From: a virus
Taxonomy: Duplodnaviria > Heunggongvirae > Uroviricota > Caudoviricetes
DNA: 64,000 bases
Strand: one strand, 5' to 3'
IMG/VR virus record: IMGVR_UViG_3300028586_000764
Shown: piece by piece, positions 2,918-50,816 of the stretch
How positions within the stretch are numbered: position 1 is the first letter of the stretch
How the letters are laid out: the number at the start of each line of letters is the position of its first letter
Made by a program: the position numbers and the translations under genes
The notes under the pieces: generated by a model
The model's input: the letters and a program-made list of their open reading frames with translations, nothing else
Databases searched by the model: none
Told to the model about the DNA's origin: nothing

Positions 2918-4651
2918 TTAGTTTGCTTCTTGCGGTGCTTCTGGAGCCGGAGCCGAGGCTTCGGCAGCCGAGGCGTTCAGCACGCCGCTCATGCCGACAG
3001 CCGATGCCACCAGAGCGTCCATGTTGCCGCCACCTTTCAGACCGACTTCAGCGAGCAGGCCGTCGACGACGGGCTGGCTGGTGCGATACCGCAGTGCAGC
3101 GGTGACCACTTCGTTGCCCAGGCCACCACCGGCAGCACCGTTGCCAGCAGCGGTACCAGCTGCGCCGGCACCACCAGTCAGGCCACCGACTTCCGCGATG
3201 CGGATGGAGTCGATGTTTTCCAGCGGCTTGACGCTCTGCTCGATGATTGCCGGCAGGACTGCCAGCAGCTGCATCTTGACTTGCTGAGCGATGACTTCCG
3301 GCGACAGCGCGTTTTGAGCTTCGTTTTTCTCGCGCAGTGCGGTTGCAACTGCGTTACCTTCGGCGATGGTCGCTTCGGCGCGCAGCAGTGCTGCGTCCTT
3401 GTCACCTTCGGCACGGGTACGTGCGGCGTTTGCCAGGTCTTCTGCAGCGTTGCGTTCGGCTTCAGCAGCCACCAGCACGGCAGTCGATTCCTTGCGAGCT
3501 TCTTCTTCAGCGCGGACCAGGGTCACGGCCTTGCTACGATTGGCGATTTCCACCTCACGTGCAGTGGTGACCTGTTCTTCAGCAGCGACAGCCAGGGCGC
3601 GAGCCTTAGCAGCTTCCGCTTCAGCAGCAGCTTCCTGCTCGCTCTTCTTCGCCACGGTGATGGCCTGGTCTTGGGCCGCCAGGCGAATCGTCGTTTCGGC
3701 GTCGATTTGCGCAGTTTCCACCGCTTTCTTCTTGGTCGCTTCCGACTGGGCAACGGCACGCTCGGTGTCGATGCGCTTCTGGGCGATGTTCTGGTTGGCG
3801 TCCAGGTCGGCCGATTCCGCACGTTGGCGACCTTCGGCTTTCACGCGTGCGACTTCGGCTTCTTGGGTTGCCGTCATCGTTGCGATTTCCTGTTCGTTCT
3901 GCAGTTCGGCTTCCGACTGGCTACGCTTCAGGGCCAGGGTCTGCTGGGTTGCAGCCAGGTCCTTCTCGGCGATTGCCACGCGGGTATCTTGCTTGGTAGC
4001 GTTGATATCGCGACGACGGGCTTCGGTCTGACGGGTCAGCTGGGCCAGACCTTCGGCGTCGAACGCGTTGTTCGCATCGAAGTACTGGGCTTCGGTCTGG
4101 TTGAGAGCGGTCAGCGAGACCGATTCCAGTTCCAGACCGTTGGTCAGCAGGTCTTCCTTGACGCTGTTCTTCACGGCTTGCGTGAATTCAGCGCGCTTTT
4201 CGTGCAGCTCGTGCATCGACATGGTTCCTGCGACAGCACGCAATGCGGCGACGAACTTCGCTTCGACCTGCGCCTTGAGCTTGACAGGGTCATTGGTCAT
4301 GGCGCCCAGGGTCGTTGCGGCCGTAGAAATGGACGCAGCGTCGGCCTTCACTCGAACGAAGAAGTCCACCTTGACGTCGACTCGCATCTTGTCGCCAGCA
4401 ACGAGAGCATCGTGCTTGCTGCGTTCGACAGACAGCGGCAGCGTCTTCATGTTGACGTACGTTGCCGTATGCAGTCGTGGCAGAACGAAAGCGCCACCGT
4501 TGAGCACCACCTTTTCGCCGCCCACGCCGGTGCGGATGAACGCACGTTCTTTGGACGAGATGATGTAGAACTTCATCACCACCATGCCAACGACGGCCAG
4601 TGCGATGAGAATGCCGATGATAACGCCGGCGGTCGACAGAATTGCGCTCAT
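2918..4651 (-). CDS. yqiK: flotillin / SPFH (band-7) family protein, YqiK-like
   Basis: The 577-aa protein has an N-terminal TM segment and an SPFH domain. It has a long Ala/Glu/Gln-rich coiled coil and a Gly/Ala-rich C-terminus. There is an AGGAG RBS 5 nt from the ATG. Confidence 0.9.
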   Translation of the reverse strand: MSAILSTAGVIIGILIALAVVGMVVMKFYIISSKERAFIRTGVGGEKVVLNGGAFVLPRLHTATYVNMKTLPLSVERSKHDALVAGDKMRVDVKVDFFVRVKADAASISTAATTLGAMTNDPVKLKAQVEAKFVAALRAVAGTMSMHELHEKRAEFTQAVKNSVKEDLLTNGLELESVSLTALNQTEAQYFDANNAFDAEGLAQLTRQTEARRRDINATKQDTRVAIAEKDLAATQQTLALKRSQSEAELQNEQEIATMTATQEAEVARVKAEGRQRAESADLDANQNIAQKRIDTERAVAQSEATKKKAVETAQIDAETTIRLAAQDQAITVAKKSEQEAAAEAEAAKARALAVAAEEQVTTAREVEIANRSKAVTLVRAEEEARKESTAVLVAAEAERNAAEDLANAARTRAEGDKDAALLRAEATIAEGNAVATALREKNEAQNALSPEVIAQQVKMQLLAVLPAIIEQSVKPLENIDSIRIAEVGGLTGGAGAAGTAAGNGAAGGGLGNEVVTAALRYRTSQPVVDGLLAEVGLKGGGNMDALVASAVGMSGVLNASAAEASAPAPEAPQEAN

Positions 4652-5774: not shown

Positions 5775-6704
5775 TCATGCTGCTTGTCGTTCGCCTACGT
5801 CAGGCTCGAAGAACGAGAATCGCAACTGCGGCACCGTGAATCGGCTTTGCATGCGCTCTTCGACTTCATTGATGGCAAAAACTAATGCCAGGTCCGACGG
5901 CATACGTCGCATTTGCACCTTGAGCGCGACCATGATGTAGGTCACGTAATCCTGGGTAATCATGTTGATGACGTGCTCGACTTCCGGCTGGGATTCGACG
6001 AAAGCGCGAATTTCCGCTTCGAGTACCGGATTAACGGACTCGCCGGCGTTCATACTTTTCACTTCCAACACCACCAGCATCGCGACCACGCACAGCAGCA
6101 CACCTACGCCTATGGTGCCGAGGGCATCGAACACCGGGTTGCCGGTGATGGCCGTCGCCACAAGAGCGAGAAGCGCTATAGCCAGGCCAGCAAGGGCCGC
6201 CACGTCTTCGCTTACGCAAACCAGCAGTGTTGACTGGCGCGTACTACGGAACCATTGCCAGAGTGTCTGAGTGCCACGTTCTTTTGCGGCCGCACGAAGC
6301 GCACCACGAAGAGCGTAACCTTCAGCTGCGACAGCAACAGCCAGTACGACAATCGAGTAGCCCAGGTATTTCACGGGTTCAGGATGCTTGAGCGCTTCCC
6401 AGCCGTGGTGGATAGAGAAGGCGCCGCCTACGCTGAAAAGTAGGAGTGCGACCATCAGCGCCCAGAAGTGCGCGTCACGGCCAAAGCCCATGGGGTGAGC
6501 CTTGGTAGGTGCTTTGCGAGCTTGTTTGATGCCGATGAGCAGTAACACCTGATTGCCGCAGTCAGCAAAGCTATGCAGCGACTCTGCCAGCAGCGAGCTG
6601 CTGCCGGTCATGACGGCCGCGACAGTTTTTGCCACAGCGATGCCGAGGTTAGCGCCAAGCGCAGTCAGAATTGGTTTCAGGGAATTGCCTGAGCTAAGGT
6701 CCAT
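5775..6704 (-). CDS. cation diffusion facilitator (CDF) family metal efflux transporter
   Basis: The 309-aa protein has 6 TM segments, an HSFADCGNQ motif and a C-terminal cytoplasmic domain. Confidence 0.9.
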   Translation of the reverse strand: MDLSSGNSLKPILTALGANLGIAVAKTVAAVMTGSSSLLAESLHSFADCGNQVLLLIGIKQARKAPTKAHPMGFGRDAHFWALMVALLLFSVGGAFSIHHGWEALKHPEPVKYLGYSIVVLAVAVAAEGYALRGALRAAAKERGTQTLWQWFRSTRQSTLLVCVSEDVAALAGLAIALLALVATAITGNPVFDALGTIGVGVLLCVVAMLVVLEVKSMNAGESVNPVLEAEIRAFVESQPEVEHVINMITQDYVTYIMVALKVQMRRMPSDLALVFAINEVEERMQSRFTVPQLRFSFFEPDVGERQAA

Positions 6705-12843: not shown

Positions 12844-13281
12844 ATGAAGGTCGCTGTCTCGGCTGTCAACGCCAACAATGAAATCGTGCAACTCATCCTT
12901 ACTCCCTCGGACGAACTGCTCGCTGAACAAGCGCGCGTCGTTGCGACTTGCCCCAACCAGCTGCCTTTCCAGGAACTGCACGTCACCTTAGCGACGTCGC
13001 CTTTCCTGCACGAGAACCTGCCCTTACCTGCGCATCCCCCGCACATCGAGCTGGTCGACGTAGCCTCGAAGGTTGAGCGTGACGATAAGACTTCGGTCTA
13101 TCTGCGCGTATCGGACGCTTCACAGAAAGCACTGGAACAATACGTACACGCTATCGCGGCAATGGTGAATCTGAGCCTGCACGACGTGGAACGTGTATTT
13201 CACGTAAGCCTGTCAAACCTGACCGGCGCACCCCGCGGCTCCATCGCAAAGGTCTGGAACCATATTCCGACGTCGGTGTAA
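12844..13281 (+). CDS. hypothetical protein (145 aa)
   Basis: There is a GGAG RBS 7 nt from the ATG, an AT-rich upstream region and a strong terminator downstream. Confidence 0.7.
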   Translation: MKVAVSAVNANNEIVQLILTPSDELLAEQARVVATCPNQLPFQELHVTLATSPFLHENLPLPAHPPHIELVDVASKVERDDKTSVYLRVSDASQKALEQYVHAIAAMVNLSLHDVERVFHVSLSNLTGAPRGSIAKVWNHIPTSV

Positions 13282-13303
13282 GCCGGCACTGCAATACCCT
13301 TCA

Positions 13304-13335
13304 ACCCGTGAGCCAACTTGGTCACGGGTTTTTTC
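13304..13335 (+). terminator. rho-independent terminator
   Basis: The hairpin acccgtgagcc-aactt-ggtcacgggt is followed by TTTTTT. Confidence 0.85.
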
Positions 13336-13350
13336 TTCAACCGGGTAAAG

Positions 13351-13374
13351 AAAAACGCCTCCCGAGGGAGGCGT
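13351..13374 (-). terminator. rho-independent terminator of the Nudix gene
   Basis: The minus strand reads cgcctccc-tcg-ggaggcg followed by TTTTT. Confidence 0.8.
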
Positions 13375-13380
13375 GTGTAA

Positions 13381-13833
13381 TTAGGCAGCGGCAGGGGTGG
13401 CCGGTGCGCAGCGTTGGGCTTCGCGCAGCGCTTCGATGGCGCTGGCCAGCAGGCTCATGAAGTCCGGACAGAACAGTTCAGGGAACTGCCACGCATCGAC
13501 GATAGTTGGAAGCGCCATGCGAATCTCGATGACCTCGTCCGTCATGCTACGCGCGGAGAAAATGTCAGCCGAAACAGCGCAGTATGTGTAGAGCTCTGCC
13601 GTACTGCCGAAACGACGATAGCGTGCCAGAATCCAGGCGTCCAACGAGATGGTGATGTCTGCTTCTTCCTTGCATTCGCGGCTTGCCGCTTCTTCAGGCG
13701 ACTCGCCTTCTTCGATATGGCCCCCGGGGAAGTTAAGCCTGCCGAGCAAGAACTCTGGGCCATGGCGCTTGGTCAGGACCATGACATGGCTGAAGTCTGG
13801 GGAGAATACGATGGATTGAGCGTAACGCTTCAT
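13381..13833 (-). CDS. NUDIX hydrolase
   Basis: The Nudix box is GRLNFPGGHIEEGESPEEAASRECKEEADI. The start at 13833 (MKRYAQ) has an AAAGG RBS. Confidence 0.85.
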   Translation of the reverse strand: MKRYAQSIVFSPDFSHVMVLTKRHGPEFLLGRLNFPGGHIEEGESPEEAASRECKEEADITISLDAWILARYRRFGSTAELYTYCAVSADIFSARSMTDEVIEIRMALPTIVDAWQFPELFCPDFMSLLASAIEALREAQRCAPATPAAA

Positions 13834-13852
13834 GACTACCTTTCGATGTTGA

Positions 13853-13873
13853 ATTGACCTGCAAGGTATAGCC
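13853..13873 (-). promoter_or_regulatory. recurrent upstream element (GGCTATAC-N5-AGGTCAAT)
   Basis: The coding strand reads gtGGCTATACcttgcAGGTCAATtcaacatcgAAAGGtagtcATG. Confidence 0.5.
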
Positions 13874-14112
13874 ACACCGCGCTTTAAGCGTACGGGCATC
13901 TTCCTGCCTTTAACGGATTACCTGTCTCGAGTAGCGGTGTTGTGACACGCTCCTTAGGCCCTGGCTCATCTGCGCTTACCAAGCCCCAGTGTTGCTGGCG
14001 TCGTCTAGCAGCCCATTTGAATAGCGCCAGCGCCTCAAGAGTGATGTCGGCCGCGAGTTGGTCGTCAATGGTAAGCAGGACGCGCTAGAACATCCTCGGA
14101 CATTCGAAAAGA

Positions 14113-14138
14113 AAAACCGCATGGCAGAGCATGCGGTT
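14113..14138 (-). terminator. rho-independent terminator
   Basis: The minus strand reads aaccgcatg-ctctgc-catgcggtt followed by TTTTC. Confidence 0.8.
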
Positions 14139-14159
14139 CTTGAATGAAATTGCGACTGC

Positions 14160-14390
14160 TCACATGCTGTCGACGTAATCCTTTGCCTCGCGCAGGCCGA
14201 CGCCCATCTTGTCGCGATACAGCTTGATTGCCTGCATCTCTTTGTTGGCACGCTTGAGAACGCGGCACTGTTCGATGATGGTTTGCTGGTGAGCGTCCTT
14301 CTCAGCCAGCTCTTGTTGACGCAGCTCGGCCAGCTCTTGCTCGAGTTGAACAATACGAGCACGTCGCGCTTCAGGAGTCATTTGTTCCAT
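14160..14390 (-). CDS. small coiled-coil protein with ribosomal L7/L12 C-terminal-domain-like segment
   Basis: AIKLYRDKMGVGLREAKDYVDSM resembles L7/L12 [21 protein letters not shown]. The N-terminus is a coiled coil ARRARIVQLEQELAELRQQ. Confidence 0.55.
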   Translation of the reverse strand: MEQMTPEARRARIVQLEQELAELRQQELAEKDAHQQTIIEQCRVLKRANKEMQAIKLYRDKMGVGLREAKDYVDSM

Positions 14391-14413
14391 ATTCTCATAC
14401 CTTAAAAGTAAAA

Positions 14414-14433
14414 ACTGTCCTGATTACAAATTA
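14414..14433 (-). promoter_or_regulatory. variant upstream element (TAATTTGTAATC-AGGACAGT)
   Basis: The coding strand reads cagTAATTTGTAATcAGGACAGTttttacttttAAGGtatgagaatATG. Confidence 0.35.
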
Positions 14434-14482
14434 CTGCCCGACTTCCAGGCTACTGCTGAAAGTCGGGACGCGGACGCACCGC

Positions 14483-14710
14483 TTAGGTCGGGCTGAGGGG
14501 GCTGATGAGACCCCAGTCGATGACACCGGGCTTGCTGTCCGGGGCCGCCACCACGCCAGGCACTTCGCCGACGTATTTCGGTTCTTCATCGTCACGCTCG
14601 AAGGTGTCACGCCACATCTGGGTGGCAGCTTCAGCGCTTTCGGCAAGGACCAGTGCATCTTGGTCCATCGATGGGTCATTGTCTCGGACGTAGAACAGTT
14701 TCAGATTCAT
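14483..14710 (-). CDS. hypothetical acidic small protein (75 aa)
   Basis: There is a GAGG RBS 6 nt from the ATG at 14710. Confidence 0.5.
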   Translation of the reverse strand: MNLKLFYVRDNDPSMDQDALVLAESAEAATQMWRDTFERDDEEPKYVGEVPGVVAAPDSKPGVIDWGLISPLSPT

Positions 14711-14724
14711 GCGTTTCCTCTCAT

Positions 14725-14758
14725 GTTGGCCTGTTGGCAAATAGCATGAGGTATAGCC
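14725..14758 (-). promoter_or_regulatory. recurrent upstream element (GGCTATAC-N18-AGGCCAAC)
   Basis: The coding strand reads ttGGCTATACctcatgctatttgccaacAGGCCAACatGAGAGGAAAcgcATG. Confidence 0.45.
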
Positions 14759-14774
14759 AAATGCCTTTCGGCTG

Positions 14775-15143
14775 TTAGCGTGTCACAAGTGCGATGTCCC
14801 GCGGATTCTTTTTCTGCAGGTCAGCGATGGTCTTGGCGATTTGCTCATAGCGCACTTCACGGTCCACCGACAACTCGATAGACGTATCCGGCTTAATGCG
14901 GCGTGCCAGGTCGTCCATCGACACCGGGCTCATTTCCACCATTAGCTGGCCGCTTTCTAGCAGCGAAACCGACAACGTCTTGGCGACCACGGGCGCGCCG
15001 GCTAAGTCAGTCTGCGGCAAGTCGACCGGCAGTCGCTTGACGAACATCGGCATGGCCAGGAGCACGACGACTAGCAGAATCAGCAGGACGTCGACCAGCG
15101 GGGTGATATTAACGGCGGCCAGGGGCTTGCGTTGGTTGTCCAT
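14775..15143 (-). CDS. exbD: ExbD/TolR family biopolymer transport protein
   Basis: AVNITPLVDVLLILLVVVLL is the typical ExbD/TolR N-terminal TM segment, followed by a periplasmic domain. Confidence 0.85.
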   Translation of the reverse strand: MDNQRKPLAAVNITPLVDVLLILLVVVLLAMPMFVKRLPVDLPQTDLAGAPVVAKTLSVSLLESGQLMVEMSPVSMDDLARRIKPDTSIELSVDREVRYEQIAKTIADLQKKNPRDIALVTR

Positions 15144-15516
15144 CGAAGGGCTCCGGAAGGAAGTATTGAGACAGCGCGGCGTCCAGCTCAGGGAACGTAT
15201 GCTTATCGAAAAATTCGTTTTTTAGTCGGGTGACCGCTGCGGACGCTGCCGCAGGACGGGAATGCCGGCGAAGCGCCTGGCGAAAGCGTTGCATGGCAAC
15301 GTCGTACCAAGCGTCTTCCGTATTAACGCCCTGCTCCATCAGCGCTTCGACCTGGGCTGGTGCCATGTCGGACAACTCAAGCCATGCTGTCATCGCCGCG
15401 AGCAACTCCTCGATGCCCTGCGGGCGCGTGAGGTCACAAAAGATGTTCAGGCTCTGGCCACCGATGTTCAGCGGCGGCAGCACGGCCGTATGGGCGAAGG
15501 TGGCTGGGCTCTTCAT
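15109..15516 (-). CDS. hypothetical protein (135 aa) inserted between exbB-like and exbD-like genes
   Basis: The ORF overlaps the exbB-like stop and the exbD-like start. No family is recognised. Confidence 0.5.
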   Translation of the reverse strand: MKSPATFAHTAVLPPLNIGGQSLNIFCDLTRPQGIEELLAAMTAWLELSDMAPAQVEALMEQGVNTEDAWYDVAMQRFRQALRRHSRPAAASAAVTRLKNEFFDKHTFPELDAALSQYFLPEPFDGQPTQAPGRR

Positions 15517-15953
15517 TTGAACGACCTCAGCGCACGATTGTGCATCAGCTGTAGCTTGCGCTGCATTAGGTTGTACGCTACAGCGGCGGGCACAGCAGAA
15601 GCGAGGCCGACTAGCGTAGAATTCAGGGCGGTCGCAATTGGGCCTGAGATGAGCGTGATATCGACACCGCTACCAGACATGGCGCGCAGCGCTTCGATAA
15701 TGTGCATCACAGTGCCCGCCAAGCCTACGAATGGCGCGGTCGATGCGATGACAGCCAACATGGGAATACCCGCTTCAAGTTTCTCAATGACTTCGTCCAG
15801 TTTGCTCTGGTCGACGCCCACCTGCTCTTGCAAGCTGCGACGGAAGACAAGCTTCGGCGCCCACAGCTCCAGCGCTTTGTAGAGGATGAGTCCGATGGTC
15901 AGTGCGACAAGCGCCACCAGGAGATAATCGACGTAAATTGCAAGGTCTTTCAT
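15513..15953 (-). CDS. exbB: MotA/TolQ/ExbB proton-channel family protein
   Basis: The 146-aa protein has 3 TM segments and a GLAGTV...ALNSTLVGLASAVPAAVAYN pattern. Confidence 0.8.
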   Translation of the reverse strand: MKDLAIYVDYLLVALVALTIGLILYKALELWAPKLVFRRSLQEQVGVDQSKLDEVIEKLEAGIPMLAVIASTAPFVGLAGTVMHIIEALRAMSGSGVDITLISGPIATALNSTLVGLASAVPAAVAYNLMQRKLQLMHNRALRSFK

Positions 15954-15989
15954 TGTCAGTCTCGTTGAATGTGAAGTGAAAAAGTGAAA

Positions 15990-16721
15990 TCAAGGCAAGT
16001 CGAGGGTGTCCGGCTTGCTCTTACCATCGTCATACGGCACCCGAATTTCGAGCTTGCGCTGCTCTCCAGGTACCAACGGTGGAACCAGGTTGGTCCAGCG
16101 CTGACCTTTGGAGGCCAGTGCTAGTGCCAAGTCCCCTAATGCATTACTCGAAGGGACCAGGATGCGTGTGTCGATGACAATGCCCTGGTCATTGACCGTC
16201 AGCTCCAGCACCAGCACGGACCCTCCCGGCTGCTCGGGGTACGTCTTTGCTGGTTCCTCGGGTGGTGCTGGAGGAACTTCCGAACTCGGGATGGGCGGCA
16301 GGGGCATCGCGGCTACTTGCGAGGGCATGACAATCGCCGGTTGCTCGAGCGTAGGCAGCGGGGGTTGCGGCGCTATTGGCATATTCGGAGTCACCGACGT
16401 AGCGGGAACTGCCGGAGTGTTCAAAGGCGCAGCCGCTGCTACTGGCACGTTCGGGGCCACGACAGGCCGAGGTGGCTTAGGCTTGACCGGCGCCTTGTCA
16501 ACCTTCAGCGGCAAAACCTGACGCGGTGCGACAGCTGCCGGAGTAGGCGTCGGCGCTGGCTTTGCCACAGCCCGAACTGCCACTCGCACGGGCTTAGGCT
16601 TAGCAGGAGGAGTCCACTGCAGCTGCGGTTTCAGCCCTTGTGTTAGGGCCATCGCCAGCCAGACACCCGCACCAAGGCAGACAGTGCGACTGGCCAGATT
16701 GCCCCAGGCGTTGACTGCCAT
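15990..16721 (-). CDS. TonB/TolA-like energy transducer (N-terminal TM, Pro-rich spacer, TonB C-terminal domain)
   Basis: There are long PxP repeats. The C-terminus VLVLELTVNDQGIVIDTRILVPSSNALGDLALALASKG is TonB_C-like. There is an AGGAG RBS. Confidence 0.8.
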   Translation of the reverse strand: MAVNAWGNLASRTVCLGAGVWLAMALTQGLKPQLQWTPPAKPKPVRVAVRAVAKPAPTPTPAAVAPRQVLPLKVDKAPVKPKPPRPVVAPNVPVAAAAPLNTPAVPATSVTPNMPIAPQPPLPTLEQPAIVMPSQVAAMPLPPIPSSEVPPAPPEEPAKTYPEQPGGSVLVLELTVNDQGIVIDTRILVPSSNALGDLALALASKGQRWTNLVPPLVPGEQRKLEIRVPYDDGKSKPDTLDLP

Positions 16722-16724
16722 CGA

Positions 16725-17336
16725 TTACTCCTGCGAGTTACGGCGTGCGCGGAAGCGAATCACGCCGAAGCCCAAGACCAGCATGCCTAATGCCAGCAGT
16801 CCGGTCTTCATGGCCTGGTCTCGATGAGACTGTACCCAAGAAAGCCAGCTCGCCGGATTTTTCAGGTCAAAGCCGACCGCGACGACAGGCGCAGCTGGGG
16901 CAGCTGCAGGCGTAGTGGTGGGCGCGCTTTTTTGCTCGTTGAGCGGGTCGACACCTGCCTTGGCAGCCTGTGCCATCGTGGCGTATGTCATAACGGGCTG
17001 GCCTGCAACGGGAGTGCTGGTCGAGGGGGTCCCGGCCGGGTTGGATGCGGCAGCTTTATTAGTCGGGTCCGAGGCAGGAATCATCGGCATTCCCGAAGGG
17101 GACGTTGCAGTGCCTGTCGTGGTCGTGGCCGTAGGCGTCGAAGCCGCGGCCGGGGCCGAAGTTGGCGCGGGCCGCTCTTTCACCAGAAGGGGCATTTGAA
17201 CGTCGGCGCGCTTAGCCGGCAGCGCATCTGGCGTGGGCACGTCGAACTTTTTCACATAGGGTTGAGCCTGGTCGGCGGCGCTGGCGCTTACGCACGTCGC
17301 AAGCAGCGCGGTCAACAAAAGGTTTCGCATTGGCAA
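16725..17336 (-). CDS. secreted Pro/Thr/Ala-rich protein with C-terminal TM anchor and basic tail
   Basis: The signal peptide is MRNLLLTALLATCVSASA. The protein is low complexity and ends in ...TGLLALGMLVLGFGVIRFRARRNSQE. Confidence 0.65.
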   Translation of the reverse strand: MPMRNLLLTALLATCVSASAADQAQPYVKKFDVPTPDALPAKRADVQMPLLVKERPAPTSAPAAASTPTATTTTGTATSPSGMPMIPASDPTNKAAASNPAGTPSTSTPVAGQPVMTYATMAQAAKAGVDPLNEQKSAPTTTPAAAPAAPVVAVGFDLKNPASWLSWVQSHRDQAMKTGLLALGMLVLGFGVIRFRARRNSQE

Positions 17337-17406
17337 ACTACTCCAGAAAGGGACATATCAGCCCTGTATAGGAGGTAGTCTTTAGCCGCTTTTTAGGGCA
17401 CCAATG

Positions 17407-17450
17407 AAAAAGTCGCCTTCGTATGCTGGGGAAGCATACGAAAGCGACTT
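17407..17450 (-). terminator. rho-independent terminator (15-bp stem)
   Basis: The minus strand reads gtcgctttcgtatgc-ttcccca-gcatacgaaggcgac followed by TTTTTC. Confidence 0.8.
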
Positions 17451-17470
17451 GGAATCACATCGAGCGTAGG

Positions 17471-18436
17471 TTAGCGGTAGGTACGCTCGAGACGGTCACG
17501 ACGGGACGTGAAACGCGAGAAGGCGTCGATTCGGTCCACCGGCACGGAGAACGAGCGATTGCCGAAGGCATTCGCGCGCAGCCAGGCCATTTCATCCTCG
17601 AACTGTTCCAGAGGTACTTCAATCCACCATGCCTTTTCCGAGTTGGGCTTGGTGCCATCCGACCAGCGGTACCCACGGTCCTTCAGGGCGTCCTTGACGT
17701 CATACGACGCACCGACTGCCCAGATGCGGCGGGCCTCCGTCTGGAAGTTGGACAGCACGTGCGCCAGCGGCGTACGGCCGTCACCGTCAACCAGTGGCTG
17801 GTCCAGTGCATGCAGCAGTGCCAGGCAGTCGGCATCAGCGCGGTGGGCTTCATAGTAGAAGCCCATGCGGAACGCGATGAATTCCAGCTTCGCACTGGCC
17901 ATGCCCGAGCTTTCCCAGTCAACCTGCGACAGCGAGCAAGCCCAAGGCTTACCTTTCATAAAGGGGAAGCGGCGCTCGCAGACTTCACGGTCAAAACGCG
18001 AATTGTGCGCAATGATGAAGTCCGACATTTCGACGGTCAACTGGACGGCGTCGTCGTTGATGCGCTTACCCTTGACCATGTCGTCGGTGATTCCGTTGAC
18101 ACGGGAGGCAGCTTCCGGAATCGGCATGCCGGGGTCTTCCAGTTCATTGAAGCGGTCCAGGGCGCTCAGCACACGGCCGGTAATGCGGTCGTAAGCAAAC
18201 GTCACCATGCCCAATTCGACAATGAGGTCGACCGAAGCGTCTTTGCCGGTTGTTTCGGTGTCAAGCACCGTAGCGATGCCAACGTCGGCACTGACCGGCA
18301 CGCGGTCGGGGCGGAACAGGGTTTCGGCGTCGAAACGGCGCAACACACGGAACTGCTGGCTGTCCTCAAGGGCTTTTGCCATCTGTTCCAGCGAAGTCGT
18401 AGGGGCTGCAACAGGGGCGTCCAGTAAATCTTGCAT
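17471..18436 (-). CDS. DEDDh 3'-5' exonuclease (DnaQ-like) with C-terminal extension
   Basis: The exonuclease motifs are VLDTETTG, IIAHNSRFD and HRADADCLALLHAL. The start at 18436 has an AAGGA RBS. The upstream part of the long ORF has non-protein-like composition. Confidence 0.85.
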   Translation of the reverse strand: MQDLLDAPVAAPTTSLEQMAKALEDSQQFRVLRRFDAETLFRPDRVPVSADVGIATVLDTETTGKDASVDLIVELGMVTFAYDRITGRVLSALDRFNELEDPGMPIPEAASRVNGITDDMVKGKRINDDAVQLTVEMSDFIIAHNSRFDREVCERRFPFMKGKPWACSLSQVDWESSGMASAKLEFIAFRMGFYYEAHRADADCLALLHALDQPLVDGDGRTPLAHVLSNFQTEARRIWAVGASYDVKDALKDRGYRWSDGTKPNSEKAWWIEVPLEQFEDEMAWLRANAFGNRSFSVPVDRIDAFSRFTSRRDRLERTYR

Positions 18437-18455
18437 GAAAAATTCCTTTTCTGTT

Positions 18456-18477
18456 AATGGTCTCATGCGGTATAGCC
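18456..18477 (-). promoter_or_regulatory. recurrent upstream element (GGCTATAC-N6-AGACCATT)
   Basis: The coding strand reads gtGGCTATACcgcatgAGACCATTaacagAAAAGGAAtttttcATG. Confidence 0.45.
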
Positions 18478-18607
18478 ACCCACACAAGTCGCACAGGTAG
18501 CCATTAAACCACGTTTTAGATGGGTTACTCAATTTATCGATTGGAACGTAGCATTTGTATCTGTTACACTGCGCTACGTTATAGACAATTTCCTTGTGGA
18601 CACTTTC

Positions 18608-19165
18608 ATGCAAACCGCCCTGTCGGCTCAATCGGCCGCTTACGCTCCGCCCGTCAGCCAGAATCCGATTGCCGAGCTTCCCGTGCCGAGCCACTCCCGC
18701 GCTGTCGCACACCTCTACGATGGCTGCCCTAACCCGGCGTTCGAGCTGCCTGGCATGATTCCGGAGTTCCTCCGTGGTCAAGTTTGCAAGACTCCACTTC
18801 GCGCGACGGTAGCTGTGCAGCAGGACGAGACACTGGCTGGAGCCGCTCTCGCCTATGGCGCCGTGTCGGCACATTTCATGGTCTCGCCGGACGCGCAGTA
18901 CGTGCAAGTATCGCTGGCCTGGCCCCATGTGCGCGCGTGGGGGCATGGCCAGTGCGACTTCCTGAAGGAACGCGCCCGCGCTCGCTGTATTCAGCAATAC
19001 GCTCAAGCGGCCCTGGCGCTGGCTCGGGAAATCGAGTTGGCTGTCCCAGGCGCGTGTGCGGTCCTGACGTTCGTAGGCGAGTGGGACGAGCAAAGTGTCC
19101 CTCTGCGTCGCAAATTGGCAGCAAAATTCGTAGAAATGCAGTTTGGGAGTGCAGTGCGCCACTAA
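18608..19165 (+). CDS. hypothetical protein (about 186 aa)
   Basis: The composition is protein-like and a terminator follows. It is preferred over the antisense N-terminal extension of ORF 17471..19180. An alternative GTG start is at 18596. Confidence 0.5.
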   Translation: MQTALSAQSAAYAPPVSQNPIAELPVPSHSRAVAHLYDGCPNPAFELPGMIPEFLRGQVCKTPLRATVAVQQDETLAGAALAYGAVSAHFMVSPDAQYVQVSLAWPHVRAWGHGQCDFLKERARARCIQQYAQAALALAREIELAVPGACAVLTFVGEWDEQSVPLRRKLAAKFVEMQFGSAVRH

Positions 19166-19191
19166 CTCAATCTGTTGCAATATCCTTAAAA

Positions 19192-19223
19192 GCCCGCCGG
19201 CATTTGCTGTGCGGGCTTTTTTG
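19192..19223 (+). terminator. rho-independent terminator
   Basis: The hairpin gcccgc-cggcatttgctgt-gcgggc is followed by TTTTTT. Confidence 0.75.
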
Positions 19224-19284
19224 TTAGAAGGATGTACTTTTAGTGGCGAGCCTTAAAAAGTGGCCGGGGATACAAGTCGTCAGT

Positions 19285-19330
19285 GGCTATACGAGGCAGT
19301 AGGACACAAATTCAACCCCCGTAGGACACA
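19285..19330 (+). promoter_or_regulatory. recurrent upstream element (GGCTATAC-N8-AGGACACA ... AGGACACA) for rIIA
   Basis: The sequence is gtGGCTATACgaggcagtAGGACACAaattcaacccccgtAGGACACAgacaatATG. Confidence 0.5.
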
Positions 19331-19336
19331 GACAAT

Positions 19337-21838
19337 ATGAAACTCGCAAATAGCCACGCTTCCGGAAATATCGTTGCCAGTGAGGGCATTCAGACCACGA
19401 GCGCGTTCGGCATCGCCCGCACGCCGCACATGTTCAACATCCTCTCCAGCGGCCTGTATTCCGATAAGATTGCGGCGGTACTACGCGAAATTAGCTGTAA
19501 CGCGATGGACGCCCACATCATGGGCGGTACTCCCGACAGACCTTTCCAGGTAAAGCTGCCAACGTCGCTCGACCGTTCCTTCCACGTGAAGGATTGGGGC
19601 CCAGGCCTGAACGACCAGGAGGTGCGCGAACTGTACACCACCTATGGCTGGTCGAGTAAGCAAAACAGTGACGACGTTACCGGTGCCTTCGGCCTGGGCT
19701 CGAAATCGCCGTTTGCGTACACGACGCAAAACGAAGAAGACAGCGATGGCTTCACCATCGTCTCGACAAAAGATGGCTTCAAGCGCATCTACACCTGCCA
19801 CATCGGTGAAGATGGTGCGCCGGCTATCAGCCGCCTGCACGAAGGCCCGGCCGACGCCGACTGGCCGCATGGCGTGATGGTCACCTTCCCGGTGCAGACG
19901 CGCGATATCGCTGAATTCCATCAGAAAGCCGTGGAAATCTATCAGTGGTTCCGCATCAAGCCGGAAATGCTCGGCCTGAATGGCCAGCTGTCGGCGCCCG
20001 AGTTCGACTTCCAGGGTTCGTTCTTCTCGATGAAACGCAAAGACAACGGTTCCGACCGTGGCGCTAGCGTCATCACCGGCAACGTGCGCTACCCCATCGA
20101 ACAGAGCCGCCTGGGCAGCCTGACGCCTATCGAAGAAGCGTTGCTGACGTCGAGCATCCACATGCACTTGCCAATCGGCCAAGTCATGATGACGCCGTCG
20201 CGTGAAACGCTGCAGTACACCGAGCAGACCAAGAGCAACCTGAAGCGACACCTCGCGGCCGCGGCCAACGAAGTTGCTGAACGCGTGCGTGAATACGTGA
20301 TGACGCCGGAGCCGACCCGATGGGCATGGTTCAAGAAGATTCACTCGTACCACGCATCCCTGCCTCACGGCATTCAGTATCGTATCGAGAAGTTCCTGGA
20401 AGCTGCCGGCGTGCCTGAAGAAGAAATCAAGATGGTGTCGCAAGCGGTGAAAGAGAACACCATCGAAGTACCCGGCTGGGTCGGCGATGGCATCGGCGGT
20501 CCGGCCGTGGAGTTCGAGTTCAACGAAGACGGCACGTACAAGCGTGACGCTCAGGGCATGCGTGTTGTGGTGCCGCGAGAACACAACTTCGGCGCCCGTG
20601 TCTATCTGTACGGATATGACAAGGCTCGTGATGCCGTCAGCCGCCGTGAGTTCATCAACGGCCGTGTGGCCAAAGGTGGCGACAAGCATGGCCGCGTGCA
20701 GCTGAGTTTCCTGTCGAGCATCCACGTGTACTACGCGGACGACAAACTGGCTGACCAGCGCGTGCGCGCGGCGGTGCGTGATGGCGAATGCAACTACGCA
20801 ATGTTGGTCACACCTTGTAAAGGCACGCCTCAAGCATATGCGGCAGAGTACGCCGCACGTCTCGTGGGCAAAAAAGGCCTGGACGGTGTACCCTCGTTCG
20901 GCGTCTCCACACTGGAGATTCCGAGTGCGGTCGAAGAAGCGCGTGAGCGTCGCCGTCGTTTCAAGGAACTGGGCCCACGCGCTACCTTTGCAGACCACGA
21001 AGTGCACTACCTGAGCCTGAACGGCAACATGGCCCGCACCACCCTGGGCGAACTGGAGGACAGCGACCTGTTCTACATGACGGCTACCAAGCTCAACGAA
21101 ATTCGTAAAGGCACTGTTCGCAACAAAGCCGACACGTACGACCACAGCTTCCCCGGCAGCTATCTCGGCGAAGTCGTGCGCAGTATCCGCATCATCGTAG
21201 AGGAACTGGGCTTGCCGGTCTCCGGAATGGTGTTGATGCCAACGGAAGGCGCTGCCCGCCGACTGAAACTGCCGGAACAGGGCTTCAAGCCCTTCCTGCC
21301 GTATTTCGTCGGGGAGCTGAAGGCCAACCGTACGCGCTGGGAAGCACTGACCGCGACGGTCGACCGTACACCACGTGTGGACATGTCGTCGCAGTACAGC
21401 GCCAAGCAGTATGGCTGGCTCGGTACGCTGGGTCATGAGATGCATCGCAACAGCGAGTTCTGGCAGCACTTCGAGGCCGAATTCTCGACCTCGCCGGTAA
21501 CGCATGCCGTTCGGGAATTCGTCAAGAACTCGGACAGCAGCAAGGAAAAGGAGGCAGTGCCGGCCAATCCTGTGTTGCAGGCACTGCAGCTGGTGGCCAC
21601 TCACCTGACCAATCACGGTCTGCCTGAAACGTCGGTGAAGCCGCTGTCGTACTACCAAGTGCGCAACGTGTTCGAGGAGATGGCACCTAGCTTCGAGATT
21701 ATCAACCAGGACGCCATGTGCAACTGGATGCGCGACAGTGACAACCATGAGCACGCCCTGTCGACGTTCCGCATGGTTCTGCAGCTGGACGGGCTGACGG
21801 ACGAAACGAGCGGTCGCACGCTTCGCCTCGTCGCATAA
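19337..21838 (+). CDS. rIIA: rIIA-like protein (N-terminal GHKL/Hsp90-like ATPase domain)
   Basis: FNILSSGLYSDKIAAVLREISCNAMDAH...KDWGPGLND...GAFGLGSKSPFAYTT aligns with T4 rIIA [28 protein letters not shown]...RDFGPGMSD...GGFGLGSKSPFSYTD. Confidence 0.9.
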   Translation: MKLANSHASGNIVASEGIQTTSAFGIARTPHMFNILSSGLYSDKIAAVLREISCNAMDAHIMGGTPDRPFQVKLPTSLDRSFHVKDWGPGLNDQEVRELYTTYGWSSKQNSDDVTGAFGLGSKSPFAYTTQNEEDSDGFTIVSTKDGFKRIYTCHIGEDGAPAISRLHEGPADADWPHGVMVTFPVQTRDIAEFHQKAVEIYQWFRIKPEMLGLNGQLSAPEFDFQGSFFSMKRKDNGSDRGASVITGNVRYPIEQSRLGSLTPIEEALLTSSIHMHLPIGQVMMTPSRETLQYTEQTKSNLKRHLAAAANEVAERVREYVMTPEPTRWAWFKKIHSYHASLPHGIQYRIEKFLEAAGVPEEEIKMVSQAVKENTIEVPGWVGDGIGGPAVEFEFNEDGTYKRDAQGMRVVVPREHNFGARVYLYGYDKARDAVSRREFINGRVAKGGDKHGRVQLSFLSSIHVYYADDKLADQRVRAAVRDGECNYAMLVTPCKGTPQAYAAEYAARLVGKKGLDGVPSFGVSTLEIPSAVEEARERRRRFKELGPRATFADHEVHYLSLNGNMARTTLGELEDSDLFYMTATKLNEIRKGTVRNKADTYDHSFPGSYLGEVVRSIRIIVEELGLPVSGMVLMPTEGAARRLKLPEQGFKPFLPYFVGELKANRTRWEALTATVDRTPRVDMSSQYSAKQYGWLGTLGHEMHRNSEFWQHFEAEFSTSPVTHAVREFVKNSDSSKEKEAVPANPVLQALQLVATHLTNHGLPETSVKPLSYYQVRNVFEEMAPSFEIINQDAMCNWMRDSDNHEHALSTFRMVLQLDGLTDETSGRTLRLVA

Positions 21839-23826: not shown

Positions 23827-24687
23827 TCACTCCTTTTCCAATAGCCTGCCACGGGGCACATCATACCGCTGCCAGAAGCCTCGGAAGATTTCTTGTTCTG
23901 CCGTGACGCGCTTCATCATCGGGCAAGCGAATCGAATAACCAGCGTATGCGACTTCGAGTCCGTCGACTGCCACAGGACTTTTGGCTGCGAACTTGGAAG
24001 GTCCACGAATTCCACACCTTCAATACGTTCGAGGTGGGCATCGGCTTTAACCTGCCAGCCGGACGTCGCGGCTTCAGCCGCATCGAGAGCAGCTTTCTCA
24101 GCTTTCTCGAAGTCTACGTCGTAAGGGACCACGATAGGCAGAAGGTCGACGATGTACTCGCCGGTGGCACTGGAATTACGCACCGGCTGATTGAGCACTG
24201 CACTATTGGGCATGGACAGAGTCTTGCCCGTCAGTTGGTGAGCAGTACCAGTCTCTGCCAGCGTAGTGGTAAAGACATCGATGTCGATGACTCGCCCCTC
24301 TTTCCCTGCGATTTCGATGAAGTCACCCACTCGGTAACTGCGCGAAGTCGTAATCATCACGTAGCCCAGGATGCACATCAAAAGCTCTTTGGACACAAGA
24401 AGGATGGCGCCACCAACTGCAGCCAGGGACAGCATCAGGCCTGCCAGCTTGGTGGCCCAAATAGCAATGACGATGAACACCATCGTGACCCAAACGATGT
24501 TCTTGGCGTGTACGAGCTTTTCACGAGTACGCGATGCGTCCTGGCCGTTACTCGTGCGCAGGAGGAATCGGCCCCAGAGGCGAGTAATCATCACGGCCAG
24601 GCCGATGGTGATAGCCGTGGCAACGATGCGGCCGAGTTCGGTCGCATAATAGTTCTGTAAGACTGCCAGGATGGATTTCAGAGTCAT
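23827..24687 (-). CDS. small-conductance mechanosensitive channel (MscS family)
   Basis: Three TM segments are followed by the MscS beta domain GDFIEIAGKEGRVIDIDVFTTTL...LSMPNSAVLNQPVRN. Confidence 0.85.
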   Translation of the reverse strand: MTLKSILAVLQNYYATELGRIVATAITIGLAVMITRLWGRFLLRTSNGQDASRTREKLVHAKNIVWVTMVFIVIAIWATKLAGLMLSLAAVGGAILLVSKELLMCILGYVMITTSRSYRVGDFIEIAGKEGRVIDIDVFTTTLAETGTAHQLTGKTLSMPNSAVLNQPVRNSSATGEYIVDLLPIVVPYDVDFEKAEKAALDAAEAATSGWQVKADAHLERIEGVEFVDLPSSQPKVLWQSTDSKSHTLVIRFACPMMKRVTAEQEIFRGFWQRYDVPRGRLLEKE

Positions 24688-25218: not shown

Positions 25219-25334
25219 CCAATTATGTAGCAAGTTGACTTTATCCCAAAGCACTGGCTAACCGATTGCTGCTGCGGACGAGTCGGCGTTGCCTAGACAA
25301 CGTTGAAGATACTTTAATGAGTATAAAGCGCCAC

Positions 25335-25362
25335 GCTATACCGGGAGGACCGCGGACTATAC
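25335..25362 (+). promoter_or_regulatory. recurrent upstream element (GCTATAC-N4-AGGACCGC, then CTATAC)
   Basis: The sequence is cacGCTATACcgggAGGACCGCggaCTATACgtcg, about 50 nt upstream of 25413. Confidence 0.4.
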
Positions 25363-25412
25363 GTCGTATGACCGTCTCGGCATATCACTATTCACACGAA
25401 TCAAGAGGCGCC

Positions 25413-26768
25413 ATGAATCAAGAACTGCAAGAGTTGCTGCGAACTCCCCGCGAGGACCTGGATATCGAGCTTAAACAGTGGATGGACCCGGAAGACAAAT
25501 CGGTTCAAGCAAAATTTGCAAAAGAGTTGTTGGCACTCAGGAATCATGGAGGGGGCTATCTGGTTGTAGGGTTCTTGGATGAGCACCCTCCTTCGGAGGA
25601 CCCTGCACGCCCTGAAAATTTGTCTGCGTTCAGTACGGACTACTTCAATAACATCATTAAAAAATATGCCGAGCCTCCATTTCACTGTAACTCCCGAGTA
25701 ATTGTCCACCCGGTAAGTGGCAAAGAGTACCCTATTGTCGTGGTCCCAGGCGGAGCAACCCATCCCGTTCGATGCAAGGCGGATTCTCCTGATATGGGAA
25801 AAAGTGCCAAAATTAACAGCTATTACATTCGTCGCCCGGGCCCGGAAAGCAATACTCCACAGTCGGGCGCTGAATGGGACGAACTGATTAAGCGGTGTAT
25901 GTTGGCACAAAAAGAATCCATGCTTTCTGCCATTGCAACGCTAATGGGGCTAAACCGTGGCAGTGTCTCGGCCTATGTCCCTGCTGAGCCAATTCATCCT
26001 CTTTCGGAACTTCGGAAGTTCCGAGACGAAGCAATTGCAGCACTGGAGACCTTACAGCAAACGAAATTGCCAGCAAACGACGCTGCCCGCTTTCCAAACG
26101 GTCGATATGTCCTGTCTGCTCGAATTGTCGGACAGCTACAGAACCTTACGCAAAAAGAAATGCTTGACCGACTCACACGGCTGCGCCGCTACACGGGTTG
26201 GTCTCCTCTGTACGTATTTTCGCGCCCCGAACTTGCCCCCTATCCTGTGGATGAAAGGCAGGTGGAGTGCTGGTTAGGTCAGGGAGAGGACAGGGACGTG
26301 GGCCACGCCGATTTTTGGCGAATGTCTACCGATGGCTTCGTGACGCTGATTAGGGGCCATCAGGAAGATGGCCATGAAGCGGCAACTACCGGCATCCACC
26401 CTGGAAAAGGACTGGAGCTCACATTGCCCGCATGGCGTATCGCAGAGTTTCTGCTTCGGGTACGAGAATACGGAGCAGCGGTCACCGAAGGAGACTTTAC
26501 CATTCAACTAATCGTACAGTGGGAAGGCCTTGAAGGTCGACAGCTGTTCAGTTATGGAAACCGGCGTTGGCTTCCTGAGGGCTTTGAGGCAAAAGTCCAA
26601 AACTACCAAAAGGAAGTGGAGTTAACGCCGGCGGAAATTGATGTGGCACTTCCGACAGTATTGAATACTCTGGTAACTCCGCTCCTACGCCACTTTTCAT
26701 TTTTTGAACCCCCAGCGGATTTCTACGAGGGGGAACTAGGAGCGCTACAGAATCGAGGCAGCTTGTAA
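25413..26768 (+). CDS. AlbA_2 (Schlafen-like putative DNA-binding) domain protein with about 300-aa C-terminal domain
   Basis: LDIELKQWMDPEDKSVQAKFAKELLALRNHGGGYLVVGF is AlbA_2-like. There is an AGAGG RBS. Confidence 0.7.
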   Translation: MNQELQELLRTPREDLDIELKQWMDPEDKSVQAKFAKELLALRNHGGGYLVVGFLDEHPPSEDPARPENLSAFSTDYFNNIIKKYAEPPFHCNSRVIVHPVSGKEYPIVVVPGGATHPVRCKADSPDMGKSAKINSYYIRRPGPESNTPQSGAEWDELIKRCMLAQKESMLSAIATLMGLNRGSVSAYVPAEPIHPLSELRKFRDEAIAALETLQQTKLPANDAARFPNGRYVLSARIVGQLQNLTQKEMLDRLTRLRRYTGWSPLYVFSRPELAPYPVDERQVECWLGQGEDRDVGHADFWRMSTDGFVTLIRGHQEDGHEAATTGIHPGKGLELTLPAWRIAEFLLRVREYGAAVTEGDFTIQLIVQWEGLEGRQLFSYGNRRWLPEGFEAKVQNYQKEVELTPAEIDVALPTVLNTLVTPLLRHFSFFEPPADFYEGELGALQNRGSL

Positions 26769-39591: not shown

Positions 39592-40605
39592 TTACCAGGC
39601 AGACAAGGCGCGCTTGCGCTGCTCTTCTGGCAGGAAGCTAGCCAAAGCCCCCTGCCGCATCATCTCAGCACATTCCTTCCCGTCGAACCCGAACAATTCG
39701 CCAACCAGGGCCAGTTCCTGTGAGTGCGTTGTCGCGCTCATCAATCGGTTGTCCGTGCACGGCACGAGCTTGAGACCAAAGTCGTGCAGGGCGCGGAACG
39801 GATGTTCCGTTGCGGACGAAATCGCGCCTGTATGTACATTTGACGAGACGCAGGCCTCGATGACGATACCTCGCTCGCGGACCATTTCGATAAGAATACG
39901 GTCGCCATTCAGGCTGTCAATCAACCGGGTGCCATGGCCCAGGCGCTTGGCACCGTGGGTGACGGCCTCCCAGATACTGTCCAGCCCTGCGGCTTCGCCG
40001 GCATGCAGCGTGATGGGGGCATGCGGCATTTCTTCATAAAGGTCCAGTAGTGCCGGATGCTTCGAGGGTGGAAATCCCGCTTCAGGCCCGGCCAGGTCGA
40101 CGCCGACAACCAAGCTGTTTGGCTGGCGGTGCCGTTGCTCGAACAGCGCGCGAACTTGTGCGAACTCGTCAATGTGACGAAGGCCGCACAGCAGCAGGCC
40201 TGCTTCGATACGGTTACCTGTCTCTTCTCGGCCTTCTCGCACACCCTGCTCCACTGCAGCGATAACCGCGTCAGGCGACAGACCACCGGCGGTGCAGAGC
40301 ATAGGGCCGAATCGCAGCTCGGCCAGCACGACGCCATCGGCCGCCAGGTCGATGACTGCTTCACGCGCGACGCGCACGAGGCTCGACTCCGTTTGCATGA
40401 CACCGACGGTCCATCCGAAGGCTTCCAGGTAGCCCGGAAGGCTGCCGGCTGCCGCGCGTGCTGCCACCAAAGCAGCCAGGCGCGCCGGGTCCCGTTCAGG
40501 CAAAGGCATACCAACCGCGTCTGCCAGTTCGATGAGCGTTTGTGGGCGAAGACCGCCGTCCAGGTGGTCGTGAAGTGCAACCTTGGGAATAGCTTGTGTG
40601 TTCAT
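39592..40605 (-). CDS. add: adenosine/adenine deaminase family protein
   Basis: The motifs are VALHDHLDGGL, TLHAGEAAG and LVPCTDNRL. The start is at MNTQAIPK (40605). Confidence 0.85.
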   Translation of the reverse strand: MNTQAIPKVALHDHLDGGLRPQTLIELADAVGMPLPERDPARLAALVAARAAAGSLPGYLEAFGWTVGVMQTESSLVRVAREAVIDLAADGVVLAELRFGPMLCTAGGLSPDAVIAAVEQGVREGREETGNRIEAGLLLCGLRHIDEFAQVRALFEQRHRQPNSLVVGVDLAGPEAGFPPSKHPALLDLYEEMPHAPITLHAGEAAGLDSIWEAVTHGAKRLGHGTRLIDSLNGDRILIEMVRERGIVIEACVSSNVHTGAISSATEHPFRALHDFGLKLVPCTDNRLMSATTHSQELALVGELFGFDGKECAEMMRQGALASFLPEEQRKRALSAW

Positions 40606-40736
40606 GGTTCTTCCAGCGTCGATGCGCCGGCTCCTAGTAAGTGGGCCGAAGCCAATGTTTAATGTCCTATGTCCTGTAGCGAAACGCAATGGTTGAACAA
40701 TCCCTATATGAGTTTTAGGTCATCTAGGAGTTGTTC

Positions 40737-48323: not shown

Positions 48324-48389
48324 GAGTCTTTCCTTTCACAATCGCGAAGGTTCCGAGCTCCCAATACGTATTGGGTCCGGAATGCGGTG

Positions 48390-50724: not shown

Positions 50725-50816
50725 CCCGCAGTTACCCGCGACGCATGTCAGAGTAGGCTACTCTCGACGGAACGAGAGGTTTCCCTAACCAAAAAGATGG
50801 CCTGAAACAATTGCAA

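Follow-up and report, generated by a model that had tools for sequence, protein, structure and literature searches.

The 64,000-nt stretch analyzed here (the window; IMG/VR record IMGVR_UViG_3300028586_000764) is filed as viral, and a first-pass annotation described a packed cluster of five genes at positions 14775 to 17336 as a phage-borne motor of the TonB-ExbB-ExbD kind. Ton and Tol motors are familiar as chromosomally encoded machines that import nutrients or keep the outer membrane intact. We find it probable, although well short of certain, that the cluster is a divergent, self-contained Ton/Tol-type module that forms part of the conserved backbone of giant, conjugative, megaplasmid-like elements in the Burkholderiales (∼0.8 Mb, possibly larger), and not to a phage. 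What sets it apart is a strongly diverged motor with two new subunits and no receptor, carried by widespread but little-studied giant plasmid-like elements. All five open reading frames (ORFs) lie on the minus strand, and their coordinates and overlaps were recovered as first described; they are listed here with the hairpin that precedes them:

16725-17336, minus strand: g1, secreted Ala/Pro/Thr-rich protein with a C-terminal anchor
15990-16721, minus strand: g2, 243 residues (19% Pro), TonB/TolA-like
15513-15953, minus strand: g3, 146 residues, ExbB/TolQ-type (PF01618)
15109-15516, minus strand: g4 (hereafter X), 135 residues, matching no family
14775-15143, minus strand: g5, 122 residues, ExbD/TolR-type (PF02472)
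17410-17450, minus strand: terminator-like hairpin, an 18-bp stem followed by the T-run TTTTCATT (hairpin scan and sequence)

The module and its five products

The genes are closely spaced, with 3 nt between g1 and g2 and 36 nt between g2 and g3; exbB and X overlap by 4 nt (ATGA), and the 3' end of X runs 35 nt into exbD, the ATG of which is preceded 8 nt upstream by GGAG. Compared with the orthologous modules of related contigs, the five genes have ratios of nonsynonymous to synonymous substitution (dN/dS) of 0.08 to 0.44 (0.08 to 0.19 for ExbB and ExbD), which points to purifying selection on all of them. The hairpin separates g1 from the upstream RNase_T-type exonuclease gene, and the module therefore probably has its own promoter, predicted to lie in 17337-17409.

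The gene-by-gene reading proposed at the outset (a secreted anchored protein, a TonB-like protein, ExbB, an unfamiliar protein, and ExbD) holds, with the ExbB and ExbD Pfam matches both above their cutoffs. g3 matches PF01618 (MotA_ExbB) with 82.4 bits (cutoff 22.9, E 3e-23), and a profile built on it matches solved TolQ and ExbB structures at E values of 1e-18 to 1e-15, including TolQ 8odt (2.4e-18) and ExbB 5sv0 (4e-17); g5 matches PF02472 with 56.2 bits (cutoff 25.4, E 5e-15) over model positions 2 to 126 of 128. When aligned with ExbB and TolQ of Escherichia coli MG1655, Thr81 in the second transmembrane (TM) segment of g3 (ExbB T148, TolQ T145) and Thr113 (T181 and T178) and Pro122 in the third are invariant, as is Asp18 in the TM segment of g5, which aligns with E. 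coli ExbD Asp25 and TolR Asp23. The position of ExbB Glu176 and TolQ Glu173 is occupied by Thr in g3 and by Gln in one related locus (L094). The loop between the first two TM segments of g3 has ∼25 residues, versus ∼80 in E. coli ExbB and TolQ, and the C-terminal tail is missing. Among NCBIfam models, tolQ (77 bits) scores higher than exbB (56 bits) and tolR (63 bits) higher than exbD (45 bits), all of these matches being far under the curated cutoffs; the short-type exbB2 model TIGR02805 gives 54.5 bits against a cutoff of 135, with g3 residues 6 to 139 aligned to model positions 5 to 132 of 138.

For g2, initially described as a TonB_C-domain protein with a long Pro-rich spacer, the description rests on architecture and modeled fold, the scores being under the family thresholds. 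An AlphaFold2 model made from an 18-sequence alignment predicts an N-terminal TM helix (residues 5 to 29), disorder over residues 30 to 165, which takes in a Pro-rich spacer of ∼135 residues, and a C-terminal beta-beta-alpha-beta domain at residues 169 to 229 (predicted local distance difference test, pLDDT, ∼88). In a Foldseek search of the PDB the top 19 matches to this domain are all TonB, HasB, FusB, or TolA C-terminal domains, although they are weak (E 0.12 to 1.3, TM-score 0.34 to 0.46), and an hhalign comparison with a small set of aligned TonB sequences matches G166-W209 to residues 173 to 215 of E. coli TonB (E 3.6e-4, 37% probability). The score against TIGR01352 is 14.9 bits (cutoff 27.1, E 0.026), nine of the 18 orthologues match that model weakly (best E 1e-3), and there is no Pfam match. 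The g2 profile found no TonB among PDB sequences; its one match there, IscU (E 0.6), was judged to be noise. A Tyr-Pro motif precedes strand 1 of the C-terminal domain in most orthologues. The SxxxH helix motif, invariant (H20) in the three reference TonB sequences aligned, is not in the orthologue alignment, which has no conserved Ser or His and in which G19 alone is invariant. g2 is adjacent to exbB-exbD in all 31 of the related loci described below, and its dN/dS is 0.16 to 0.25. By modeled architecture and fold it appears to be TonB/TolA-like; we do not claim membership in the TonB family proper.

X matches no Pfam or NCBIfam family and no known fold, and has no hydrophobic segment; it is presumably a soluble, cytoplasmic protein of a small orphan family. 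Its structural model is confident (pLDDT 83, predicted template modeling score 0.75), with four short strands and five helices, and a profile search of 1.84 billion representatives recovered only 22 clusters, all of 97 to 133 residues. The first-pass annotation had allowed that this additional gene, overlapping both of its neighbors, might be a spurious frame. However, its dN/dS of 0.16 to 0.30 and the distribution of differences over codon positions 1, 2, and 3 (23/14/59) argue that X is an expressed and selected protein, and the gene is real and conserved. The ATGA overlap suggests that it is translationally coupled to ExbB. X is absent from about one-third of the 31 loci (L092, L115, L116, L120-L123, L126, L129, L132, and L135), in which exbB and exbD abut or overlap by 4 nt, and it is therefore an optional, lineage-specific insertion. 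The idea that X substitutes for the missing cytoplasmic domain of ExbB is ruled out by the modules without X, which keep an equally short ExbB.

The likelier start of g1 is the ATG at 17330, which has GGAG upstream, agrees with the public gene call, and gives a protein of 201 residues; the alternative TTG at 17336 gives 203 residues. g1 is predicted to be an exported, inner-membrane-anchored protein, with a signal peptide (predicted cleavage site ASA|A), a disordered low-complexity region (overall composition 19% Ala, 11% Pro, and 11% Thr), and a C-terminal hydrophobic segment (residues 173 to 195) followed by the Arg cluster RFRARR, giving a bitopic topology. It has no family match in Pfam or PDB profile searches, its dN/dS against orthologues of related contigs is 0.25 to 0.44, and it contains the conserved motif QPV.TYATMAQAAKAGVDP. 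The features kept across orthologues are the signal peptide, a motif at the mature N terminus, the central motif YATMAQAAKAGVDP, and the C-terminal anchor. We considered that g1 may be a lipoprotein and rejected this because the Cys is not kept in the Variovorax or Burkholderia orthologues. The motif at the mature N terminus is short with alternating hydrophobic residues (YVKKFDV, FSLKLD, FTLKVE, or YTSQIRL), and recalls a TonB box or the TolA-binding N terminus of TolB; it could be a client strand for the adjacent TonB-like domain.

Conservation of the module and the nature of the element

The module was surveyed in 31 related loci by use of hidden Markov models and BLAST. All of the loci keep the order g2, ExbB, X (where present), and ExbD; g1 could be detected in most of them, and none has a TonB-dependent receptor adjoining the module. 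A larger block, consisting of rIIB, rIIA, the exonuclease gene, the module, an RNaseH-like gene, and a primase gene, persists down to ∼30 to 50% amino acid identity. The rIIA/rIIB-like pair, transcribed divergently from the module, adjoins it in most of the loci (32 to 74% identity), and in the window is located as follows:

19337-21838, plus strand: rIIA-like protein, 833 residues
22012-23151, plus strand: rIIB-like protein, 379 residues (PF26926)

Proteins identical to those of the module are encoded by a 69.6-kb Logan contig and by an 810-kb metagenomic contig. Three large contigs (846 kb, 1.23 Mb, and 1.46 Mb) carry an orthologous module in the same neighborhood, as does a contig of Burkholderia cenocepacia, and the module is also present on ∼800- to 840-kb plasmids of four cultured Variovorax strains; among GTDB species representatives, a full-length relative occurs in Variovorax sp. 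WDL1 only.

By tblastn, 6.8 to 61.5 kb of the window is collinear with 719 to 693 kb of the 801-kb Variovorax sp. SRS16 replicon NZ_LR594667.1, with ∼25 window genes matching in order at 33 to 64% amino acid identity; identities to the Variovorax plasmids are 58% for ExbB, 62% for ExbD, 62% for primase, and 40% for the rIIA-like protein. The G+C content of the window is 57%, versus 62.5% for the Variovorax megaplasmid, and the two are distant relatives. These plasmids of linuron-degrading Variovorax (pSRS16-1, pPBL-E5-1, pPBL-H6-1, and pWDL1-1) were described as forming a novel megaplasmid group that carries tRNA genes along with repB-parAB, tra/trb genes, catabolic transposons, and type I-E CRISPR-Cas, and they are transferable and stably kept in the cultured strains (Ozturk et al. 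2020, PMC7313664). That report makes no mention of a Ton-like module or of rII-like genes, although the same five-gene module is present in the same backbone neighborhood. A further possibility raised initially, that the cluster is an ordinary host Tol-Pal fragment acquired as cargo, does not fit with these observations; the module is instead a conserved and divergent core of the element family.

The whole RefSeq annotation of NZ_LR594667.1 was read by product names. For replication and partition it lists RepB, ParA/ParB, and one further replication initiator. A full F-type type IV secretion system (T4SS) is accompanied by two coupling proteins, and there are genes for type IV pilus-like and chaperone-usher pili, a single exbB-exbD pair, and defense genes for type I restriction-modification, AbiE, Wadjet, and type I-E CRISPR. 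Capsid, terminase, portal, and tail do not occur among the product names, and neither does a TonB-dependent receptor. Within the window itself, the ORFs scanned include no virion or packaging gene, and no tRNA was found in the 64 kb. The statement in the first-pass annotation that there is no TonB-dependent transporter is likewise supported, in that none was found among the scanned ORFs of at least 430 residues, which are most, though not all, of the frames in the receptor size range.

Several other aspects of the element family are of note. The backbone mixes plasmid genes (RepB/ParAB, F-type T4SS) with rIIA/rIIB-like genes and genes for DNA polymerase, primase, RNaseH, ligases, Rad52, and SSB. 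NZ_LR594667.1 also encodes SecA, two SecB proteins, S26 and A24 peptidases, Dsb proteins, SmpB, and peptidyl-tRNA hydrolase, together with several aminoacyl-tRNA ligases, RecA/RadA/RecJ, gyrA, and thyA, a gene set that is unusually autonomous for a plasmid. There are, in addition, two giant 'choice-of-anchor D' proteins of ∼3,200 to 3,300 residues. A larger curiosity than the module is the family itself, whose plasmid-like replicons are of megabase scale and combine rII and replication genes of phage type with tRNA arrays and genes for protein export.

Proposed function and alternative explanations

If the module works like the ExbB-ExbD and TolQ-TolR complexes of known structure, its short ExbB would form an inner-membrane ring around an ExbD dimer, and proton flow by way of ExbD Asp18 and ExbB Thr81 and Thr113 would drive movement of the stator, which would be passed on to the N-terminal helix of g2. 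The Pro-rich spacer of g2 could then cross the periplasm, with the beta-beta-alpha-beta domain gripping a partner by strand pairing, and g1 and X may be subunits particular to this lineage, with an accessory or regulatory role. The output would be a dedicated envelope task for the element, such as tethering of the outer membrane or support of the transfer or pilus machinery. We favor such an element-serving task over nutrient import because the C-terminal domain of g2 has diverged, the SxxxH motif is missing, and the module is part of the backbone in different hosts. If the motor does serve the element, this would be a new use of this motor class and would provide a handle on the maintenance and transfer of megabase plasmids; because the module is on plasmids of cultured Variovorax strains, it is open to direct genetics.

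Tol-Pal is among the closest known systems. A role in envelope integrity would need no receptor, and there are further similarities, in that the tolQ and tolR models score slightly higher than their Ton counterparts, a solved TolQ is the top PDB sequence match of ExbB, and TolA C-terminal domains are among the fold matches of g2. However, tolA follows tolQR in E. coli, whereas the transducer gene of the module precedes exbB, and the module contains no homologue of TolB, Pal, CpoB, or YbgC. The spacer also differs, being Pro-rich in g2; domain II of TolA is a long Ala/Lys-rich helix.

A number of observations weigh against the proposal of a divergent Ton/Tol-type backbone module. The assignment of g2 is the first of these, with its TIGR01352 score of 14.9 bits under the cutoff of 27.1, no TonB among PDB sequences matching its profile, and Foldseek E values of 0.12 or worse. 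Second, with Glu176/Glu173 not conserved, proton coupling could differ from that of ExbB and TolQ. As for the element, RepB/ParAB, the F-type T4SS, and the tRNA array were seen on the relatives, and the window covers 64 kb of an element that measures 810 kb or more; pseudogenes are left out of the PLSDB table, and the many hypothetical proteins may include virion proteins that are highly divergent; and the module-bearing contigs of 1.2 to 1.46 Mb could be chromosomes with an integrated copy. Finally, that we prefer an envelope task to nutrient import is an inference drawn only from the divergence of the module and the absence of a linked receptor.

A less probable explanation, although one to be taken seriously, is that this is an auxiliary Ton system energizing TonB-dependent transporters of the host or of the accessory regions for nutrient or siderophore uptake. 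The order of transducer, exbB, and exbD is common to many Ton operons, and the likeness to Ton systems with a short ExbB (TIGR02805, exbB2) includes the Thr in the second TM segment, the Thr and Pro in the third, the ExbD TM Asp, an ExbB almost without a cytoplasmic domain, and a transducer in which an N-terminal TM helix and a Pro-rich spacer lead to a modeled beta-beta-alpha-beta domain, itself preceded by Tyr-Pro in most orthologues. The short ExbB spans the full TIGR02805 model, albeit at well under half of the cutoff score. Moreover, plasmids do carry Ton clusters, as illustrated by the TonB-ExbB-ExbD sets on large plasmids of Pseudomonas aeruginosa (CP124675) and Azotobacter (pAcX50f). 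In these clusters, however, the transducer is annotated as TonB, and ExbB has 235 residues and is 42 to 43% identical to the window ExbB over the C-terminal two-thirds only; they lack g1 and X, adjoin nutrient transporters, and have a receptor directly adjacent (P. aeruginosa) or ∼3.5 kb upstream (Azotobacter). In the module, by contrast, the NCBIfam and TonB-domain scores are under their cutoffs, SxxxH is lacking and Glu176 is replaced, and two conserved subunits foreign to canonical Ton systems have been added, one (g1) upstream and the other (X) separating exbB from exbD. It is also located in the replication and backbone block rather than in cargo regions, and no receptor is beside it in any of the 31 loci or annotated on the complete 801-kb relative, although receptors encoded by the host could still be its clients.

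We regard as somewhat less plausible still a dedicated motor with a built-in client, in which the motif at the mature N terminus of g1, which resembles a beta strand, would be an analogue of a TonB or TolA box gripped by the C-terminal domain of g2, X would gate the stator from the cytoplasmic side, and the work would be done for maintenance or transfer of the replicon, for example by remodeling the envelope where the F-type transfer apparatus or its pili are located. If this were true, the module would add a third function to the two now served by Ton/Tol-type motors, nutrient import and the Tol-Pal role.

That a huge phage encodes a proton-motive-force-driven motor for DNA entry, superinfection exclusion, envelope remodeling, or release, as the first-pass annotation proposed, is improbable. 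The neighboring genes do include rIIA/rIIB-like and phage-type replication genes with PHROG matches, the best tblastn match of the rIIA-like protein in phage records is to a 595-kb uncultured phage (36% identity), and the related contigs are very large (0.8 to 1.46 Mb). However, the window lines up in gene order with the backbone of a conjugative plasmid from a cultured strain, one of a group that carries catabolic transposons (PMC7313664), and virion genes are found neither in the scanned ORFs nor by name on the 801-kb relative. Megablast of positions 13000 to 19500 against the 50,697 phage records of INPHARED gave no nucleotide match, and tblastn with ExbB against phage records found only ordinary ExbB/TolQ proteins in misfiled bacterial contigs and at prophage edges (35 to 44% identity, partial). 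IMG/VR (2.9 million viral contigs) contains nothing related to the short ExbB or to the primase linked to it, and the rIIB-like proteins there are at most 40% identical, as compared with 45 to 74% within the element family. With none of INPHARED, tblastn, and the three IMG/VR scans yielding a close relative, we reject a phage origin; nothing relevant was found in the literature on phage or megaplasmid ExbB/TonB modules. The phage-looking rIIA/rIIB-like and replication genes belong to the plasmid backbone, and they serve as a warning that such genes do not alone define a phage contig.

The least plausible of these explanations is a Zorya-like defense or sensor system that uses a MotAB/ExbBD-type stator to detect envelope perturbation by phages or competing plasmids, and although the elements are rich in defense systems (those named above for NZ_LR594667.1) and the module adjoins rII-like membrane proteins, no PADLOC model matches the five proteins (BilD, at 12.8 bits, is at chance level), the module has no nuclease or other effector gene, and to our knowledge a TonB/TolA-type transducer is not a component of Zorya.

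Other genes of the window

The remaining features are located as follows:

14483-14740, minus strand: small ORF 3' of exbD, 85 residues
14160-14390, minus strand: small ORF 3' of exbD, 76 residues
13381-13899: NUDIX gene, with a strong terminator at 13374-13355
25266-26768, plus strand: Schlafen/AlbA_2-domain protein
39592-40689, minus strand: adenosine deaminase
52271-54106, plus strand: 611-residue protein with HYDIN/ASH-type Ig-like domains
48389-50779, minus strand: complete group II intron (Rfam matches)
48464-50224, minus strand: intron reverse-transcriptase/maturase/HNH ORF (phrog_1423, E 2e-116)
2918-4651, minus strand: flotillin/SPFH gene
5775-6704, minus strand: cation-efflux gene
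23827-24687, minus strand: MscS gene

The two small ORFs are co-directional with the module, and neither was found in the Variovorax module. The 85-residue ORF is kept in three close relatives (L003, L004, and L114) at 42 to 51% identity, and the 76-residue ORF ends, as judged by eye, like a ribosomal L7/L12 C-terminal domain (GLREAKDYVD). Nothing in the collinear stretch of the Variovorax plasmid matches the adenosine deaminase, HYDIN/ASH, or Schlafen/AlbA_2 ORFs; the window segments at ∼37 to 42 kb and 44 to 57 kb, which hold the adenosine deaminase and HYDIN/ASH ORFs, are unmatched in that stretch. The group II intron is recognized by its D1-D4-7 match at 50626-50779 (113 bits) and by domain V/VI at 48389-48466 (58 bits). 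The flotillin, cation-efflux, and MscS genes share a backbone stretch with the ExbBD and rII-like genes, a local concentration of inner-membrane and ion-homeostasis functions, and the flotillin and MscS genes are also present on the Variovorax plasmid.

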